64,000 nucleotides of DNA. Source: Lachnospiraceae bacterium 62-26. Lineage in GTDB: Bacteria > Bacillota > Clostridia > Lachnospirales > Lachnospiraceae. Of this stretch, positions 39,762 to 59,580 are shown in pieces. The translations under genes were made by a program, and so were the position numbers. How positions within the stretch are numbered: position 1 is the first letter of the stretch; every line of letters starts with the position of its first letter. Location of the stretch: NCBI GenBank assembly GCA_041223685.1, contig JBCLQR010000015.1. One strand, given 5' to 3'. Below the pieces are notes generated by a model. That model made no database searches. It was given only the letters and a program-made list of their open reading frames with translations, and was not told the origin of the DNA.

Positions 39762-40967
39762 TCATGCCTGCGGTTGTATATCGGAGGCATATCTGTCATA
39801 GTATAGTGATGATTCATCTTCAGTGAGACCAAAATGTTTTTGCAGTTTCATAAGGATTCTTCCCTTGGGGATCTGCTCGTCCAGGTTGTCTAGAATTAAT
39901 GCCTGTATGCCTTCTTCTTTGGCAATCCTGGCTTGTGCTTTAGCGTCCATAGCTTCTTTTTTAATAATTTCAGATTCCTTTTTAATAATTTCAGCTTCTT
40001 CCATAACAATTTCGGCTTCTTTTCTGGCGATTTCAGCCTTTTCTTTAACAATTTCAGCTTCTTTTCTGGCGATTTCAGCTTCCGCTTTAATAGCCTCAAC
40101 TTCTTTCTGGACAGATTTTAGAGCATCATCCCGAACTCCTGCGTGTACGACCTGCTCCAGGCTGCTCATCTGCGTAACCTCCCTCCACAATTCCGCATTG
40201 GCAGAGAAATCGATATATTCTGTTACTGTTGACATAAAGTCCTCTTTATGCGGATACATAATTGCATTCAGGAAACGAAAAAGGTCATATCCATCGTCTT
40301 CCTTACCCCCATTATACACCTCATTGCCTAATTTGATAACTACTAATGTCATCAGATCGTAGTTTTCTCTGGCCACGGAGCCGGGCGAGGTATTCCTGGT
40401 GTTGGTCGTCTCGTAAACGGAAATACTATAGCAGTCCTTCTTTGGGATATCATCCCGGCAGATAAAGATGCTGTAGCATTTGGAGAGAAGGTTGTAATCC
40501 GTGCCTTCATAGGCCAGTGACAGCTGGGAGGACAAACGGCGTGCAAGATAGTAAAATCCCCGCTTTTCAATCGGGTAACCTGGTTTATACGTCTTCTGCG
40601 GTTCCAGATCGATATGCAGGTTGATCTGGATATCTTCTGTAGAGAGCTGGGGATTCCGGGCCTGAAAGGCCAGATCAAAGTTAGTTGTTTTCTCATTGAG
40701 ATGAATGAATTCGGTGTTGCCGCAGCTGACTTTGGTGTTACTCCTTCCCGGCGATACTTCCGTGGTGTTGGTAATGGAATCCGGAACAATAAATTCTTGT
40801 ACTTCCTTTAAACTATATCCTTTGTATTCTGAGACGGTTCCTTTCAAGATAACTGCCAGCACCTCCAAGTGGCGCAGGATTGTTTTGCTTGGAGCGTCCT
40901 TACCGGCCGTGTCTGCGGTAGTCTGCAAAGCGCTAAGGGCAGCAATGCTTCCCTGAAGCTTATCCAT
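39762..40967 (-). CDS. Rpn family recombination-promoting nuclease/putative transposase (PD-(D/E)XK, YhgA-like)
   Basis: 401 aa; N-terminal nuclease-like region, central acidic heptad-like repeats (KEAEIARKEAEIVKEKAEIARKEAEIV), C-terminal ..LILDNLDEQIPKGRILMKLQKHFGL.. tail as in Rpn/Transposase_31 proteins. Confidence 0.6.
   Translation of the reverse strand: MDKLQGSIAALSALQTTADTAGKDAPSKTILRHLEVLAVILKGTVSEYKGYSLKEVQEFIVPDSITNTTEVSPGRSNTKVSCGNTEFIHLNEKTTNFDLAFQARNPQLSTEDIQINLHIDLEPQKTYKPGYPIEKRGFYYLARRLSSQLSLAYEGTDYNLLSKCYSIFICRDDIPKKDCYSISVYETTNTRNTSPGSVARENYDLMTLVVIKLGNEVYNGGKEDDGYDLFRFLNAIMYPHKEDFMSTVTEYIDFSANAELWREVTQMSSLEQVVHAGVRDDALKSVQKEVEAIKAEAEIARKEAEIVKEKAEIARKEAEIVMEEAEIIKKESEIIKKEAMDAKAQARIAKEEGIQALILDNLDEQIPKGRILMKLQKHFGLTEDESSLYYDRYASDIQPQA
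40007..40090. repeat. Two tandem 42-bp units (plus degenerate flanking copies) inside the Rpn-like gene
   Basis: CAATTTC(G/A)GCTTCTTTTCTGGCGATTTCAGC.. repeated at 40007-40048 and 40049-40090; encodes the EAEIxRKEAEI peptide repeats. Confidence 0.7.
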
Positions 40968-53832: not shown

Positions 53833-54888
53833 TCATTTCAGATTCCGTTGTCTCCAAAGGCGCGACCGCAGGCTTTTCAGGAATTTCTCATTTCCGATCA
53901 CTGTGATCATAGGACCAAAGGACATCACTTCGATCAACAGCTCGGTTTCCATGCTCTGATTATAATAGATAAGGCATTCATAGGTGTTCTCATCTATCTT
54001 GGTCGTATTCTTTTCATAATTGGCAAAATGTAACATAGCCCGTTCCAGTGCGTTGCGCTTATTGGCGATATGCAGCCGGAGCGGTTCTTTGTAGTAGGAT
54101 CTTCGGATCAGCGAATTCAGATCAATGTCAGAAGAGAGCCGTTTTTCTGTGAGCCGGGCACTCTGTATGCGGGCGATATTCAGGATGTCAAGCCTCATGC
54201 CGCCACGGCCGGTATTCTTCAGCGCGAGGAGGCGGAACTTGTCGTTTTTGACGGAGTATTCAAGCCTGGCAGGAACATAGTGATGGTGTACGCGCGTTCC
54301 GGCAGGGGAAGTATAATCAAGATCCACATACCGTTTAAGCTTCTGCGCCTTCAAGAGAGTTCGGAAGTTTTGACGGTATGTTTCACTTCTGCCGTAAAGC
54401 CTGTCCTCTTTTTCATCTGCGCCGGCTTCGTCTGACAACGCCGCGGCGCCTGATGATACCGCGTCACTGCCTGACGGCGGTATCGGATAGGGATCTTTGT
54501 CTGCAAACTGGTCATAATAGCAGAACTGTTCCTTACGCCAGAGCGGTTTTACAGACGCAAGCATTTCGTTCAGGGCATCGAATTGCTCCCGGTCAAGAAA
54601 CAGTCCGATGCGGGGATCTGACAGCAAAGCCTTGAGATAAGATTTTTCAAGGGAAGTGAGCGGGACGGCAAAGGAGGGGGAAAGCCTGGACAGATAGAGT
54701 TCGTTGTCCCTGTCAAACAGATTCCATGCCCCGCTCTCCAGTCTTGGGATGATGGAGATCATGCTTTCGCCGAAGCCTTCGTTGTCGATCTGGCGGTAGA
54801 TCTCCTGTATGGTCATGGCATCTGTCCGGCACAGAATATGCCGTAATACCTGGTAATAACAGCTGTATATTTCTGAAAATAATTCCAT
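53833..54888 (-). CDS. WYL domain transcriptional regulator (wHTH-WYL-WCX architecture), downstream member of a tandem pair
   Basis: 351 aa; WYL-domain signature region (..YVPARLEYSVKNDKFRLLALKNTGRGGMRLDILNIARI..), C-terminal WCX-like end (FGPMITVIGNEKFLKSL); RBS AAAAGGAG. Confidence 0.7.
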   Translation of the reverse strand: MELFSEIYSCYYQVLRHILCRTDAMTIQEIYRQIDNEGFGESMISIIPRLESGAWNLFDRDNELYLSRLSPSFAVPLTSLEKSYLKALLSDPRIGLFLDREQFDALNEMLASVKPLWRKEQFCYYDQFADKDPYPIPPSGSDAVSSGAAALSDEAGADEKEDRLYGRSETYRQNFRTLLKAQKLKRYVDLDYTSPAGTRVHHHYVPARLEYSVKNDKFRLLALKNTGRGGMRLDILNIARIQSARLTEKRLSSDIDLNSLIRRSYYKEPLRLHIANKRNALERAMLHFANYEKNTTKIDENTYECLIYYNQSMETELLIEVMSFGPMITVIGNEKFLKSLRSRLWRQRNLK

Positions 54889-54916
54889 GTGAGAACTCCT
54901 TTTTCATTCGCGGCTG

Positions 54917-55025
54917 GTGTAAGGGGACCGATTCGTAAAGGTATTGACTCGTAAAGGAATCGATTCGTAAAGAAATCGACTCGTAAGGGGATTGATTCGT
55001 AAAGAAATCGACTCGTAAGGGGATC
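54917..55025. repeat. Tandem array of 6.5 copies of a 16-bp unit (GAYTCGTAARGRRATY), filling the spacer between the two WYL genes
   Basis: Full units at 54930, 54946, 54962, 54978, 54994, 55010; units alternate GATTCGTAAAGAAATC / GACTCGTAAGGGGATT, giving a 32-bp period; last unit overlaps the stop codon (55024-55026) of the upstream WYL gene. Confidence 0.85.
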
Positions 55026-56289
55026 AGGCGTCTTCGTTTGGCGTATGGGAAGCCGGGGGGATCTCATACATCTCGTACATTTTCTGCAAGTCACGGTAAA
55101 ACCGTTGTTCTACGGATCTGGCGGTACACTTAAGATCAAGGATCCTTCCGATAAATGTGCGGATCCACGGCAGCATTTCATTACAATCAAAGACTTCGAT
55201 CTCGTACTGATAGATATTCCGTGCGATCTTTGTTACGGTTCCGCCCCTGCCTTCCCGTTTCAGCCTGTCAACAATATAATCCTCAGCAGGTTCGAGAGCC
55301 TGTATGGTCATGGTAAGTCTGTCCAGATGATGCGCTCCTTCGCCCTGAAAGGAAACGCCCCACAGCTTCTTGCGGTTCTGATCCAGTGTGTCTGTGAGCC
55401 TGTCATATTCCGGGAAGGGTTCCAGAGGGGTAACACATTTGATGGAATCCAGTCGGAAGCAGGAGAAGCGTTTTCTTCTGTGCACATATCCGCACAGGTA
55501 ACGCCGGCCGCTCCTTGTGCTGATAAATATCTGCAACGGGACGCAGACGGTGGTGGTTACTTTCTCCGAGCGGGAGCTTTTCAGGCTGAGTTCCACACGC
55601 ATTTTCTGGTTCATGGCACAGAGAAGCTTAAGAAGAATCTCATCCTCCAGTGTATGTACGCAGAAGCTGTGTTTTACCCGGAAAGTCTGGTTCTGACAAT
55701 CCATCTGATCGGTTAGTTCATTCCCGATGATTCCAAATACTTCCGCTGTCTGGTAGAAGAAGAGTGCATCCAGTATATCTTCGTTGGAACGGATCCACCG
55801 GATCGGCGCAAGGTTCAGGGAGTAGACGACCGTCTTTCCTTTCTTCTGCTTGTCTAAAAGCCCCTCTCTGGCATAGGCGTTGCATTTGCGCCGGACGGTC
55901 TGTATGTCGAACAGTGCTTCGTATTCCGTGAGAAGGAGGTCTGTGACGGCTTCTGCTGTCAGGGCGCGCCCGTCTTGCAGGATATCTAAGATCAGAAAAT
56001 GCAGGACAATATCGTTGTCGGTAAAGCTCTTCGTCTTCCATACTCTGAACAGGGGATTGGCATCCAGAAGATTACTGTCGATGGCGAGGGAAATATTTGA
56101 GCCGCCGGATACATGATCTTTCCGGACATAGGGGGCAAGCCAGCTCTCCAGCCGTCTCCGCTCATTGTCGTAGGTGCGGGGGCTTTTGGCCTTGAATTCA
56201 TTCCTGGTCTTGAACCCGTAGACGAAAAAATCGCGGACGTATTCCCGTGTCTTGGGAAAGCTCTTTATTAATTCCTGAAAATCAGACAT
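55024..56289 (-). CDS. WYL domain transcriptional regulator (wHTH-WYL-WCX), upstream member of the tandem pair (PafB/PafC-like arrangement)
   Basis: 421 aa; classic WYL motif VPLQIFISTRSGRRYLCGYVHRRKRFSCFRLDSI; C-terminal WCX-like ..WIRTFIGRILDL; strong RBS GTAAGGAGGCA; divergent from rtcB. Confidence 0.75.
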   Translation of the reverse strand: MSDFQELIKSFPKTREYVRDFFVYGFKTRNEFKAKSPRTYDNERRRLESWLAPYVRKDHVSGGSNISLAIDSNLLDANPLFRVWKTKSFTDNDIVLHFLILDILQDGRALTAEAVTDLLLTEYEALFDIQTVRRKCNAYAREGLLDKQKKGKTVVYSLNLAPIRWIRSNEDILDALFFYQTAEVFGIIGNELTDQMDCQNQTFRVKHSFCVHTLEDEILLKLLCAMNQKMRVELSLKSSRSEKVTTTVCVPLQIFISTRSGRRYLCGYVHRRKRFSCFRLDSIKCVTPLEPFPEYDRLTDTLDQNRKKLWGVSFQGEGAHHLDRLTMTIQALEPAEDYIVDRLKREGRGGTVTKIARNIYQYEIEVFDCNEMLPWIRTFIGRILDLKCTARSVEQRFYRDLQKMYEMYEIPPASHTPNEDA

Positions 56290-56472
56290 TGGGTGATGCC
56301 TCCTTACTTCTGTGCCTGTGGGACGGATGTACTTTGTATGGAAGTAATCGTATCACAGACCAGAAGAAAATACCAGAGTTCGCAGCTTTTTTTAAATGAT
56401 TCTGCGGAAAATGCCGGGTATAATACTACCATCAGATGCAGATCAGAAATAAGATGAAAGGGTGTGGAGGAT

Positions 56473-57705
56473 ATGTTTGTAATATCAAATGAGAATACCA
56501 GATTTCCGATAAAAATATGGCTTGAAGATATCAGCCGGCTTGAAGGATCCTGTCTTGAACAGGCGTATCACCTGGCACAGCTTCCGTTTTTGCACAAATG
56601 GGTGTGCCTGATGCCGGACACCCATACGGGCAAAGGAATGCCGATCGGCGGGGTGATCGCGGCGAAGGATGTGATCATACCCAACGCGGCAGGCGTGGAC
56701 ATCGGTTGCGGGATGGATTACATACCGACGAATATTTTGGTGGAAGAGATAAGGAAGGTACAGACGGGAAACGGCACGATCCTCCAGGCAGTCATCGGAA
56801 ATATCATGCGGACGATCCCGCTTGCCACGGAACGTTACAGGGAACCGCAGAAGTCCAGGGTGCTTGACCGGGCGAAGCAGGAGCCGGAAAAGTATCAGGA
56901 GGATCAGGAGCTTCTGCCGTTGATCGAAGACGGGTATTTTCAGGTGGGAAGCCTGGGAGGAGGAAATCATTTCATAGAGCTTCAGGAGGATCAGGACGGC
57001 TGTCTGTGCATCATGATCCATTCGGGCAGCCGCCATCTTGGGAAGGAAATCTGTGATCATTTCCACAAGAAGGCCAGAGAACTGAACCGGAGATGGTACA
57101 GTGAAGTAAAAGACGAATATCAGCTGGCGTTCCTTCCGGTTCAGGCCAGGGAGGGGCAGCAGTATATCAATTGGATGAACCTGGCGCTTGATTATGCTTT
57201 CGAGAACAGAGAGAGGATGCTTGAGAAGACCTGTTCCATTGTGAAGGAGACCATAGAGAAGTATACGGATATGATCGTGGAATTCGGGGAAGAGATCAAC
57301 TGCCACCACAACTATGCGGCGTTGGAGAACCACTATGGAGAAAATGTCTGGGTACACAGGAAAGGCGCAGCCAGGGTGCGGGAAGGCGAGCTGGCTGTAA
57401 TCCCGGGGGCGATGGGTTCCTTCAGCTATGTGGTGGAAGGAACGGGGAATCCCTTATCTTTCTGCTCGTCTTCCCACGGCGCCGGAAGGAATTATTCGAG
57501 GACGGGAGCCATGAGAGAGTTCAGCGTGGAAAAGGTCATGACCGATCTGAAGGAACAGGGCGTCGTGCTTGGGAAACGCAGGAAAAATGATGTGGCAGAA
57601 GAGTGCCGGTTTGCCTATAAAGATATCGACCAGGTAATGGCACAGCAGATGGACCTGGTTACGCCGGTCAGAAGACTTCGGACGGTCGGCGTCGTGAAGG
57701 GATAG
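56473..57705 (+). CDS. rtcB: RtcB family RNA 3'-phosphate/2',3'-cyclic-phosphate ligase
   Basis: Start ATG 56473 (MFVISNE.., RBS GTGGAGGAT); metal-binding and catalytic motifs MPDTHTGKGMPIGGV, GGGNHFIELQ, IHSGSRHLG, CHHNYAALENH; the track start 56464 is a GTG. Confidence 0.9.
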   Translation: MFVISNENTRFPIKIWLEDISRLEGSCLEQAYHLAQLPFLHKWVCLMPDTHTGKGMPIGGVIAAKDVIIPNAAGVDIGCGMDYIPTNILVEEIRKVQTGNGTILQAVIGNIMRTIPLATERYREPQKSRVLDRAKQEPEKYQEDQELLPLIEDGYFQVGSLGGGNHFIELQEDQDGCLCIMIHSGSRHLGKEICDHFHKKARELNRRWYSEVKDEYQLAFLPVQAREGQQYINWMNLALDYAFENRERMLEKTCSIVKETIEKYTDMIVEFGEEINCHHNYAALENHYGENVWVHRKGAARVREGELAVIPGAMGSFSYVVEGTGNPLSFCSSSHGAGRNYSRTGAMREFSVEKVMTDLKEQGVVLGKRRKNDVAEECRFAYKDIDQVMAQQMDLVTPVRRLRTVGVVKG

Positions 57706-57820
57706 GGAAATAATTTATTGTGTCAGGGTATTGGGAGGACTTCATATAACCCGTGCTCCCTGCCCGGCGGTGCCTGCGGCGTGCTGTCAGGTATACCATA
57801 AATATTTCAAATATAAAAAG

Positions 57821-57875
57821 TGTGGTGTCGGGGGTTCGAATCCCTCCCGTGTAAACGGCAGCTCAGAGGTAGAGC
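57821..57875 (+). other. tRNA-like fragments: T-arm (GGGGG-TTCGAAT-CCCTC) with 3' acceptor-like strand, then a D-arm-like GCTCAGAGGTAGAGC; no complete tRNA
   Basis: T-stem/loop at 57830-57846 followed by CCGTGTA-A; D-arm-like element at 57861-57875; the upstream 50 nt are AT-rich with no acceptor or D-arm partner. Confidence 0.35.
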
Positions 57876-58317
57876 ACACATGAGAAAGGGAAGACTTGTC
57901 AAAGGTCTGCGGTTTAACGCCGCTCTAATTAAAAATACTTCTGTCCCTTCTGTGTCATTGCATGTTATATGCGGATGCAATGATGCAGGGGTTCATGCAC
58001 AGGATGCAGATTGACTTGCCGCCTGTAAGCCCGATTTGCAATACGCAGACTGGAAGGATCATGGAAGTGATCATAGACAGGGATCAGGAAGATAAGCCGG
58101 AAAGAAAGAACAGCGGCCGGCAAAAGGTATTTTCAGAATGTACGGCAAAAGGCGGCGGCCTGTGAATGCCGTGCAGGAGAAGTGGATACCAGCTGACGGA
58201 CCGTCCTTCTTTCAGACCGGCCGCCTCCCCGGGCTTCCGCGGCAGGCCGATGAACAAGGGATGGGAGTATTCTGAAAAGAACAAAATTATTCTACATTCA
58301 GACAGGAGGAATGTGTT

Positions 58318-59430
58318 ATGAAGTATATGCTCAGGGATAATCAGGCGGGATTTGTGTTAAAGGACGGAGTATTCAAGAAAATGATAACGTCCGGAATCTG
58401 CCGTTTCTCCAAAATGCGGGGGTACAGTGTTGAGATAGAAGAGATGTCGGGCGAGGTCGACTACATGGAAGTGCCTTATCAGATCCTTGCCAAAGATCCG
58501 GCGTTTCTTGCATCGGTCCTGCATGTGGAGATTCCTGACGGTTCTGTGGGATTTATTTACATAAATGGAAAACTGACGTCATTTGCCAATCGGAAAGAGT
58601 ATACATTCTGGAATGTATTTGACAAGTATGAGGTAAAGACCGTATCCATGGCGGAGACAGAGATCGGGGCGGAGGTGTCAAAGCAGATGCTTGCACTGGT
58701 CCCAAAGAACCTTTATACGGAGATATCCGTAGGAGAAGGGCAGACTGGCCTGGTATATTATGACAATGTACTCCAAAGGCAGCTGGCGAAGGGGGTGTAT
58801 CGCTTCTGGAACTATGCCCGAAGTGTGACGTACCATATATTTGATATGAGGCAGCAGGAACTGGACATCGTGGGGCAGGAGATACTGACCAAAGACAAGA
58901 TCGGTATCCGGATGAATGTTTCCTGCATGTATAAGGTCCGGGACGCCGTAGAATTTGCCGCGACGGTGACGGAGCTTAAGAGGCCCCTTTACTCGGCGGT
59001 ACAGCTTGTGATCCGGGAAATTGTGGGAAATTATAAGCTGGATGAGATATTAGAGTTAAAAGAGAAGATTTCCGGGGAAATCTATACGGCTCTCAGGGTG
59101 CGGGAGAAGATGTTCTGCGTTAATTTCCTGACTGCCGGGATCAAGGATATCATACTGCCGGGCGAGATCCGGGAGATTATGAATTCCGTCCTGGTGGCTG
59201 AGAAGTCGGCGCAGGCAAATGTAATCTCAAGGCGGGAGGAGGTGGCTTCTACCCGGTCGCTTCTCAATACGGCGAAACTGATGGATGAGAACAAGACGCT
59301 CTTTAAGCTCAAGGAGCTCGAGTATCTGGAGCGGATCTGTGAGAAGGTGGGAGAGATATCTGTGAATGGAAATATGGGGATTGTAGAACAACTGGGGAAG
59401 ATGATCGGGACAGGGCAGAGGGCTTCTTAA
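58318..59430 (+). CDS. SPFH/Band-7 domain protein (slipin/flotillin-like) with no N-terminal TM
   Basis: 370 aa; SPFH core (..QEILTKDKIGIRMNVSCMYKVRD.. and ..REIMNSVLVAEKSAQANVISRREEVAST..) preceded by a 130-aa soluble N-terminal extension. Confidence 0.7.
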   Translation: MKYMLRDNQAGFVLKDGVFKKMITSGICRFSKMRGYSVEIEEMSGEVDYMEVPYQILAKDPAFLASVLHVEIPDGSVGFIYINGKLTSFANRKEYTFWNVFDKYEVKTVSMAETEIGAEVSKQMLALVPKNLYTEISVGEGQTGLVYYDNVLQRQLAKGVYRFWNYARSVTYHIFDMRQQELDIVGQEILTKDKIGIRMNVSCMYKVRDAVEFAATVTELKRPLYSAVQLVIREIVGNYKLDEILELKEKISGEIYTALRVREKMFCVNFLTAGIKDIILPGEIREIMNSVLVAEKSAQANVISRREEVASTRSLLNTAKLMDENKTLFKLKELEYLERICEKVGEISVNGNMGIVEQLGKMIGTGQRAS

Positions 59431-59580
59431 TGAAGCTCTCTAATTTTTTGGGGATTTTAGATATATTTCATACTGTTTTTCTGATTATATGATAAAATAA
59501 ACAAGAATGCGGAGAAATACAAGGGCGTAGATTTCCACAGATAAAAAAGAGTTGTCATCACAGGAAGGAGTTGTTTTATT

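Follow-up and report, generated by a model that had tools for sequence, protein, structure and literature searches.

What fills the 612-bp noncoding gap between the RNA ligase gene rtcB, whose stop codon lies at 57703-05, and the band-7 gene that begins with the ATG at 58318 in Lachnospiraceae bacterium 62-26? We address this question in a 64,000-nt stretch of contig JBCLQR010000015.1 (GenBank assembly GCA_041223685.1; hereafter the window, with all coordinates counted from its first letter). A preceding inspection of the letters without database searches, which we call the sequence-only reading, had noticed in this gap a T arm (GGGGG/TTCGAAT/CCCTC, 57830-57846) followed, against the usual order, by a D arm (GCTC/AGAGGTA/GAGC, 57861-57875). 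It offered three interpretations: (i) a tRNA 3'-end remnant left as an att scar, (ii) a degenerate tRNA pseudogene and, last in its ordering, (iii) a tRNA-like RNA co-transcribed with rtcB. The gap, both arms and their order are as described, and we found that the two motifs form the heart of a YrlA-type tRNA mimic with circularly permuted elements: a tetraloop caps its acceptor stem, and its anticodon stem opens to the flanks. Two things had been overlooked, namely that this module makes up only about one-tenth of a conserved structured RNA occupying the whole gap, and that the downstream Band-7 gene is the real genomic partner of this RNA. That the gap RNA is a conserved tRNA-mimic RNA we hold with high confidence; the fuller reading, in which a ~566-nt tRNA-mimic RNA belongs to an rtcB-band7 unit and acts in RtcB-dependent RNA repair, we regard as likely.

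The module runs from 57820 to 57881 on the + strand, and its elements follow one another as anticodon-stem 3' strand, variable loop, T arm, closed acceptor hairpin, D arm and anticodon-stem 5' strand. A closing 'anticodon' stem of 5 bp (GUGUG, 57820-24, with CACAU, 57877-81) encloses a 5-nt variable loop (GUGUC, 57825-29), the T arm (GGGGG, 57830-34; UUCGAAU, 57835-41; CCCUC, 57842-46), a 4-bp acceptor-like hairpin with a GUAA tetraloop of the GNRA class (57847-50:57855-58), the equivalents of tRNA positions 8 and 9 (C57859 and A57860), the D arm (GCUC, 57861-64; AGAGGUA, 57865-71; GAGC, 57872-75) and the equivalent of position 26 (A57876). This arrangement revises the sequence-only reading in two details: what it described as a 7-nt acceptor-like strand does resemble an acceptor but is really a closed hairpin, CCGU-GUAA-ACGG (57847-57858), and the upstream flank, where it saw no 5' half, does contribute, as GUGUG pairs there with CACAU to close the module. 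The same architecture is given by the solved crystal structure of YrlA (Wang et al. 2018, bioRxiv 10.1101/312249) and described in Chen et al. 2014. Because the element order matches that architecture, we interpret the apparent scrambling of T and D arms as design and not decay. In a permissive scan of the gap, the Rfam family YrlA (RF02553, 'Y RNA-like') matched the module partially, with 35.3 bits (E = 7e-6) over model positions 23-86, the tRNA-like domain; seven other loci scored 28-38 bits, and all of these values lie below the gathering score of 69. Besides the permuted order, YrlA and the window module share the nucleotides that make tRNA tertiary contacts, genomic linkage to rtcB, and the lack of both a CCA end and an anticodon loop.

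By its RtcB protein, the window falls within Dorea/Lachnospiraceae. Further support for the module comes from its conservation across a comparison set of 80 species-level RtcB loci. In an alignment of 45 sequences covering the module and the two hairpins that follow it (A2), 26 pairs were paired in 99.1% of cells, and 13 of them showed compensatory changes, which are found in all four module stems and in both following hairpins. None of 500 shuffles reached the observed values, and only 26-54% of cells were paired when the partners were slid. The bases behind the tRNA elbow are nearly fixed in this alignment: A14, G18, A21 and the T loop UUCRA are kept in 45/45 sequences, G15:C48 in 44/45 and U8 in 43/45, the window being one that carries C instead. 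A covariance model of this aligned region (R1) gave 106 bits in the window and at least 95 bits in the window plus 47 loci. It also detected the module in six distant RtcB-Band7 loci, Paenibacillaceae and Lacrimispora among them, whose RtcB and Band-7 proteins are ~69% and ~48% identical, respectively, and in which every stem is compensated (for example AUGAU/AUCAU, GCAGG/CCUGC and CGGU/ACCG). A strict regular expression for the module had no matches in the 80 loci; a looser expression and profile or covariance models were needed.

These results bear directly on the interpretations that the sequence-only reading had placed first. A canonical cloverleaf (acceptor, D, anticodon, T, acceptor, with an anticodon loop) is absent: ARAGORN reported no gene and the Rfam tRNA model was silent. 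Indeed, no tRNA or tmRNA gene was called by ARAGORN anywhere in the 64-kb window, in agreement with the statement that this is not a normal tRNA, and the only tmRNA signal was an 18-nt T-arm match of 8.8 bits. The proposed search with Rfam models yielded nothing in the window at gathering thresholds, and the partial YrlA match came from the permissive scan of the gap. A chance match to the motif can be set aside: a T loop, 16 nt and AGCTCAG..GTAGAGC are found together a single time in 64 kb and in 0/100 dinucleotide shuffles even with two mismatches; the T-loop motif by itself is not significant, with 2 matches against 0.59 expected in the window. An att scar or a decaying pseudogene would find some encouragement in the real tRNA genes that follow rtcB in loci without the RNA. 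We nevertheless reject both, because the permuted order is a YrlA-type design, the stems and the closed acceptor hairpin are kept by compensatory substitutions in ~50 species at the same place relative to rtcB, and the window holds neither a parent tRNA nor a second copy. Near-invariant tertiary-contact bases, the lack of repeats and mobile-element genes in the window, and 97.6-98.4% identity of the region across sampled strains of the species speak against a remnant as well, leaving this origin a negligible probability.

The module is embedded in a much larger element, which we delimit to 57706..58271 on the + strand (~566 nt) from profile matches and three covarying sub-domains. It begins 1 nt past the rtcB stop and ends 33 nt short of the band-7 Shine-Dalgarno sequence. 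An nhmmer profile of the region matched 46/80 loci along its whole length, over ~260 nt directly after rtcB, and in a multi-species alignment conservation begins at the rtcB stop codon. The + strand is assigned because G-U pairs are kept on that strand only, as seen in the alignments of the module and of the 5' domain. In eight genomes, no Rfam family other than the partial YrlA matched any part of the RNA. Matches of the gap to miRNA and snoRNA families proved to be chance matches to hairpins of the 3' domain.

Upstream of the module, a 5' three-way-junction domain (57707..57808) is defined by covariation in a second alignment (A3). It consists of P1 (57707-18:57798-808, with A57713 bulged), the bulged hairpin P2 (57726-30:57761-65 plus 57733-37:57756-60) with a species-specific 18-nt loop, and the hairpin P3 (57773-79:57784-91), which is flanked by two nearly invariant junction strands of consensus GGCGGUGCC and GGUAUACC (in the window GGCGGUG, 57766-72, and UAUACC, 57792-97). 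In other species a further hairpin, P4, comes after the three-way junction; it has been lost in the species of the window. Across P1-P3 and P4, A3 comprises 39 pairs that are paired in 94.6% of cells, with two-sided changes in 25 pairs and 115 compensatory cells, values reached by 0/500 shuffles. P1, including its bulged A, and P3 also align in register in four distant loci (L073-L076). Two candidate features of this region were rejected: a sigma-70 promoter just 5' of the module (TATAAA, 57812-17) is not conserved, coincides with the P4 position elsewhere and was not called by a promoter scanner, and a pairing of the conserved AUGG linker with CCAU at the P1 junction showed no covariation on inspection of the alignments.

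Downstream of the module lie two hairpins. The first, AGACU-UGUCAAA-GGUCU (57892..57908, + strand), resembles an anticodon arm, forms helix 5 of A2 with two compensatory pairs, and mostly carries a 7-nt loop YUGUNAA; in distant loci its stem reads ACAC/GUGU in place of AGAC/GUCU. The second occupies 57909..57923 on the + strand and is a second T arm, GCGG-UUCGAAU-CCGC, in 44/45 sequences, which has degenerated in the window to a plain hairpin GCGG(U/C)UUAACGCCGC; the plain form is found in the window's species and in distant clades. A natural variant at locus L037 (5385-5410) carries a deletion between the two T loops that removes the acceptor hairpin, the D arm and the anticodon-like hairpin and leaves a chimeric T arm, as if T loops 1 and 2 had recombined.

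With the flanks resolved, the relation to Y RNAs can be judged. YrlA is the sole Rfam family that matches, and a genuine Y RNA whose Rsr/Ro60 partner is encoded elsewhere in the genome would account for this. The match, however, covers only model positions 23-86 and scores 28-38 bits where 69 would reach the gathering score. In the window and most loci nothing matches the outer stem of YrlA (positions 1-22 and 87-114); full-model alignments of L074 and L057 place this stem largely via non-standard pairs. The long 5'/3' stem that binds Rsr/Ro60 is thus absent from the window RNA, which is ~5 times longer than YrlA and whose 5-bp closing stem opens into other domains: the flanks where a Ro stem would lie belong to P1/P4 and the anticodon-arm-like hairpin, and form covarying helices of their own. 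Linkage to rsr, a defining feature of YrlA, was not found at this locus, and no TROVE (Rsr/Ro) protein is encoded among the neighbours or the window's open reading frames (ORFs) of at least 397 aa. Finally, presence of the RNA tracks Band-7. We consider a genuine Y RNA very unlikely; because this locus has neither an Rsr/Ro gene nor a Ro-binding stem, the RNA is, judged by its sequence, not a Y RNA proper. Separately, one ORF of 401 aa (39762-40967, - strand) had no Pfam match at E up to 1e-5 and is unrelated to the RNA. YrlA-like modules are also frequent in viral contigs (L089-L177): the pattern of a T loop, N13-18 and AGCTCAG occurs in at least 120 contigs, 75/91 matches lie outside ARAGORN tRNAs, and many resemble YrlA-type permuted mimics (T arm, tetraloop hairpin, D arm), none of which, in the viral-contig scan, stood beside RtcB, Band-7 or WYL homologues of this locus.

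The third sub-domain is a helical rod of 340 nt (57934..58271, + strand), again defined by covariation. Its closing helix S1 (57934-47:58258-71) is kept through C-G and G-U replacements; in the consensus, the tail AAUACUUUUAUCCC pairs with GGGAUAAAAGUAUU ~300 nt further on, just 5' of the band-7 ribosome-binding site. Within it we located a species-specific hairpin (57950-88) and the helices S4 (58011-18:58243-50), S5 (58020-22:58239-41), S8 (58104-10:58207-13) and S9 (58114-16:58201-03). Altogether, seven helices with 41 pairs are 90.8% paired, and compensatory changes affect 31 pairs and 188 cells, compared to a maximum of 79 cells in shuffles (n = 500) and at most 66 when the strands were slid. 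An independent RNAalifold prediction from 24 sequences gave 32 rod pairs, 24 of them compensatory, and the window's own rod folds with a minimum free energy of -143.3 kcal/mol (z = -5.97). With R2, an apex-trimmed covariance model of the rod core, loci outside the training set scored 50-78 bits, and the rods of Subdoligranulum (Oscillospiraceae) and L074 scored ~30 bits (E ~2e-5).

The conserved rod loops include GNAUACC and CUGAA. Similar GNAUACC motifs occur in the 5' junction (57790-57797, consensus GGUAUACC) and in the main internal loop of the rod (58086-58097, consensus GGGAUACCG), and the pair recurs in the distant and Subdoligranulum versions; the rod copy of the window has diverged to GAAGAUAAGCC. 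Owing to this recurrence at two sites, the two copies may be candidate binding sites of one protein.

The sequence-only reading had seen no credible ORF in the gap, and this holds: the rod region contains open frames for 67 aa (57962-58165) and 51 aa (58166-58321), neither of which is kept as a reading frame in other species. Gene callers list 60-aa and 51-aa ORFs at the corresponding site in the sister strains L083-L088, and the 51-aa peptide has weak tblastn matches in a few loci, as small protein-coding genes would. These matches fall in helix strands conserved at the nucleotide level, while frame, start and length (11-149 codons) differ by locus, often with only 4 codons past the first start, and indels are not multiples of three. 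The chance that the 3' domain is a pair of small genes is minimal in our view, and the annotated ORFs are probably mis-annotations of a structured RNA, to judge from their pattern of change.

The distribution of the RNA identifies its partner. Among the 80 RtcB loci, the RNA and Band-7 co-occur in ~53 of ~54 informative loci and are both absent in ~25. In many gut Clostridia, a conserved, base-paired + strand RNA fills the spacer between rtcB and band-7 and is inherited and lost with Band-7. Individual loci show intermediate states: in L017 (5233-5440), Band-7 is lost and the RNA is a decayed remainder with a deletion, and in L059 (1650-1860) the RNA is lost along with most of Band-7. In RtcB loci where RNA and Band-7 are missing, true tRNA genes, namely tRNA-Glu plus Thr, Arg or Cys, lie 70-260 nt past rtcB instead (L021, 5495-5649; L044, 5305-5477; L028, 5391-5652; L025, 5414-5698).

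The operon context supports joint expression. Upstream of the RNA, rtcB (56464..57705, + strand; Pfam RtcB, E = 1e-108) encodes the RNA 3'-phosphate/5'-OH ligase. Downstream, the gene for a soluble Band-7/SPFH ('slipin') protein (58318..59430, + strand; Pfam Band_7) starts 47 nt past the RNA end, preceded by the Shine-Dalgarno sequence AGGAGG (58304-09), and it is followed by an intrinsic terminator with a 10-bp stem and then AATTTTTT (59417..59441, + strand). Since P1 begins 1-2 nt past the rtcB stop, no terminator-like site lies between rtcB and band-7, and a terminator follows band-7, the RNA is probably co-transcribed as part of an rtcB-RNA-band7 unit. Of interpretation (iii), the conserved tRNA-like RNA has therefore held up, and its co-transcription with rtcB is a prediction from these operon signals. 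In 18/44 loci, as in the window, the spacer between rtcB and P1 is short (0-14 nt). One subgroup (L013, L015, L041, L070 and related loci) contains a palindrome, CAGTATACTG or close variants, in two copies ~30 nt apart and 20-60 nt 5' of P1; the copies could form an additional helix or act as an operator together with an internal promoter.

An RNA between two co-oriented genes without a terminator invites the simpler view of a cis-regulatory leader, a structured 5' untranslated region of band-7 or 3' untranslated region of rtcB that tunes translation or stability, for example through a bound tRNA or protein. A stretch of 33 nt separates the 3' strand of the rod closing helix from the Shine-Dalgarno sequence, the RNA always accompanies band-7, and in Subdoligranulum and E. 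coli relatives (see below) it lies directly upstream of that gene, all of which such a leader would explain. No conserved pairing, however, sequesters the Shine-Dalgarno sequence, no terminator/antiterminator pair is present, and the T-box leader model (RF00230) had no match at E up to 10, nor does the gap hold a terminator. The rod-to-start interval differs by tens of nucleotides between loci, and ~570 nt with more than 100 covarying pairs and a complete tRNA mimic far exceed the needs of known leaders. We therefore rate this explanation as improbable.

Divergent from rtcB lie two tandem WYL-domain genes (53833..56289, - strand), putative regulators whose products comprise 421 aa (55024-56289, - strand; Pfam WYL and PADLOC WYL) and 351 aa (53833-54888, - strand; PADLOC WYL only, E = 5.7e-7). 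The 351-aa protein has no Pfam, NCBIfam or PDB match, and BLASTP against the other WYL protein was negative. Nearly all of the 80 loci have the pair in synteny with rtcB; the pair may be a PafB/PafC-like heterodimer regulating rtcB, as its gene arrangement suggests, and probably controls the rtcB-RNA-band7 unit.

WYL domains are sensors of nucleic-acid ligands, and together with the synteny of the WYL pair and rtcB this would suit a sensor or decoy role. The anticodon-arm-like hairpin or the whole mimic would then be bait for anticodon nucleases or ribotoxins, the WYL proteins would sense its cleavage fragments, which carry a 2',3'-cyclic phosphate, and switch on the operon, and RtcB would reseal both bait and tRNAs. 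The hairpin has a stem of 4-5 bp, which covaries even in distant loci, and a mostly 7-nt YUGUNAA loop with U33-like and purine-37-like positions. A precedent exists in RtcR, which is activated by tRNA halves ending in a cyclic phosphate (Hughes et al. 2020, PMC7790460). On the other side, the loop varies in sequence and length (5-9 nt, many variants), and WYL-rtcB pairs persist in ~25 loci without the RNA, so the regulator does not need it. We judge a sensor or decoy function unlikely.

The protein that travels with the RNA has no transmembrane segment. In a Foldseek comparison, its structural model resembled stomatin, prohibitin, HflK/C and flotillin, proteins that all oligomerize into rings or cages. 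Residues 1-180 (58318-58860) form a confident all-beta region (predicted local distance difference test score, pLDDT, ~85-90) ahead of the SPFH domain and are a candidate RNA-binding part.

Relatives with other gene orders extend this picture. In both Subdoligranulum and E. coli, the RNA stands directly 5' of band-7 and not after rtcB. Subdoligranulum variabile (L082, OY725857, 4500-4990) carries, in order, genes for a WYL protein and a 303-aa partner, the RNA, Band-7, RtcB and RlaP; its RNA contains two adjacent T arms (4654-68 and 4677-93), a 7-bp closed acceptor hairpin, a D-like arm and an R2-positive rod core (30 bits). In E. coli, an island of slipin, RlaP nucleotidyltransferase and a zeta-toxin-family gene beside lysC is present in 1635/5426 complete genomes (~30%). 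In the example of strain STEC639 (L081, CP061233, 4670-4990 and 4992-6916), a sigma-54-like TGGCAC-N5-TCGCA element and then an unannotated RNA precede the island; in this RNA a closed 7-bp hairpin comes after a T arm (UGGGUUCGAUUCCCA), and it escapes both R1 and the Rfam YrlA model. RlaP, the Pfam 'RNA repair pathway' nucleotidyltransferase, is carried by these related systems and is absent from the neighbourhood in the window. At the level of gene content and RNA motifs, the two relatives confirm an RtcB/RlaP-Band-7 system.

A system of this kind has been predicted before. According to Wang et al. 2018 (10.1101/312249), Burroughs and Aravind 2016 reported that some bacteria encode RtcB beside a Band-7 protein and a predicted noncoding RNA (ncRNA) named 'b7a-tRNA', which is characterized there as strongly resembling an authentic tRNA; the same source mentions that YrlA occasionally adjoins a Band-7 protein gene. 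The locus in the window shares with that system a tRNA-like ncRNA between or beside rtcB and the Band-7/SPFH gene, with the RNA ligase gene immediately upstream, and relatives that carry RlaP. It differs, as far as that summary describes the system, in that b7a-tRNA resembles an authentic tRNA whereas the module here is permuted, and in that the regulators here are WYL proteins instead of the RtcR of the RtcB/Band-7 system. Within the same limit, the RNA fits the system that Burroughs and Aravind 2016 predicted, in which a tRNA-like RNA is associated with Band-7. By that secondary account, an RNA of this kind was thus predicted in 2016, and it is absent from Rfam; what appears to be new here are the size and architecture of the RNA and the WYL-controlled form in Lachnospiraceae.

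How might such an RNA act? Our tentative proposal, drawn by analogy, is that it serves as a scaffold, the non-coding subunit of an RNA-repair ribonucleoprotein (RNP). The soluble SPFH/Band-7 oligomer would hold the parts that are not tRNA-like, namely the 5' junction as well as the rod, whose loops include GNAUACC and CUGAA; the exposed tRNA-like elbow and the anticodon-arm-like hairpin would present a tRNA-shaped surface. In the way that a Y RNA tethers Ro60 to PNPase, this surface might bring RtcB and other enzymes that recognise tRNA to damaged tRNA or rRNA, or hold them in place there. The Ro60-Y RNA-PNPase RNP of Deinococcus also combines a ring or cage protein with a modular ncRNA, one end of which is bound by protein while the other presents a module to an enzyme, and both systems are tied to RNA-repair operons; the protein here is SPFH and not TROVE, and its binding to the RNA is putative.

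Two further groups of RNAs are instructive. OLE, ROOL, GOLLD and raiA are large 'ornate' bacterial ncRNAs of ~500-600 nt with dense covariation, found in Clostridia in a fixed protein-gene neighbourhood. The window RNA has their size class, covariation density, occurrence in Clostridia and fixed gene neighbourhood in common with them, but their Rfam models do not match it, and it holds a complete tRNA mimic in an RNA-repair operon. In the permuted tRNA genes of Cyanidioschyzon merolae the 3' half comes first, and maturation involves RtcB-type ligation and a circular intermediate. The window module likewise has its 3' half before its 5' half; unlike these real, aminoacylatable tRNAs with an anticodon loop and a 7-bp acceptor, it has a 4-bp closed hairpin and no anticodon loop.

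Several observations weigh against the reading as a repair-associated RNA of the rtcB-band7 unit. The window copy is the most deviant of its main group, with C for U8, no P4 and a second T loop that has degenerated; its rod, which carries a ~60-nt insertion and diverged loops, is missed by R2. Among the sampled strains of the species, C8, the absent P4 and the degenerate second T loop are fixed. The folding energy of the 5' half is unremarkable (z = -1.08), and the single-sequence fold of 57790-57930, at z = -1.1, is uninformative. In 26/44 loci a spacer of 36-196 nt precedes P1, and for this reason the RNA may have its own promoter there; a -10-like box upstream of P1 in the spacer-bearing loci is wrongly spaced and was dropped as a candidate. 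The N-terminal beta domain of Band-7 has no fold match in the PDB, where all matches are SPFH proteins, and RNA binding by this protein is inferred, as are the ends, processing and partners of the RNA. Lastly, by the secondary description used for comparison with published systems, this may be either the 'b7a-tRNA' case or the 'YrlA next to Band-7' case.

Taken to its full extent, our hypothesis, which remains speculative, is that the spacer encodes an uncatalogued large RNA (~520-620 nt, of the OLE/ROOL size class, in several families of Clostridia and in Paenibacillaceae) that joins a tRNA mimic, a second T-loop module, a 5' junction and a rod, and that may assemble with an SPFH cage and RtcB into an RNA-repair particle. 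If true, bacteria would have their own equivalent of Ro-Y RNA or of vault-like RNPs, and earlier work would have seen only the tRNA-like piece of the RNA. The finding flags a large structured RNA that is missing from Rfam and is currently annotated as small ORFs. With base-pair-level covariation models, natural deletion variants and a strict Band-7 partnership at hand, the role of tRNA mimics in RNA repair becomes directly testable. The carriers are abundant gut Lachnospiraceae, and the RNA bears on the physiological substrates and cofactors of RtcB, a conserved bacterial RNA ligase.

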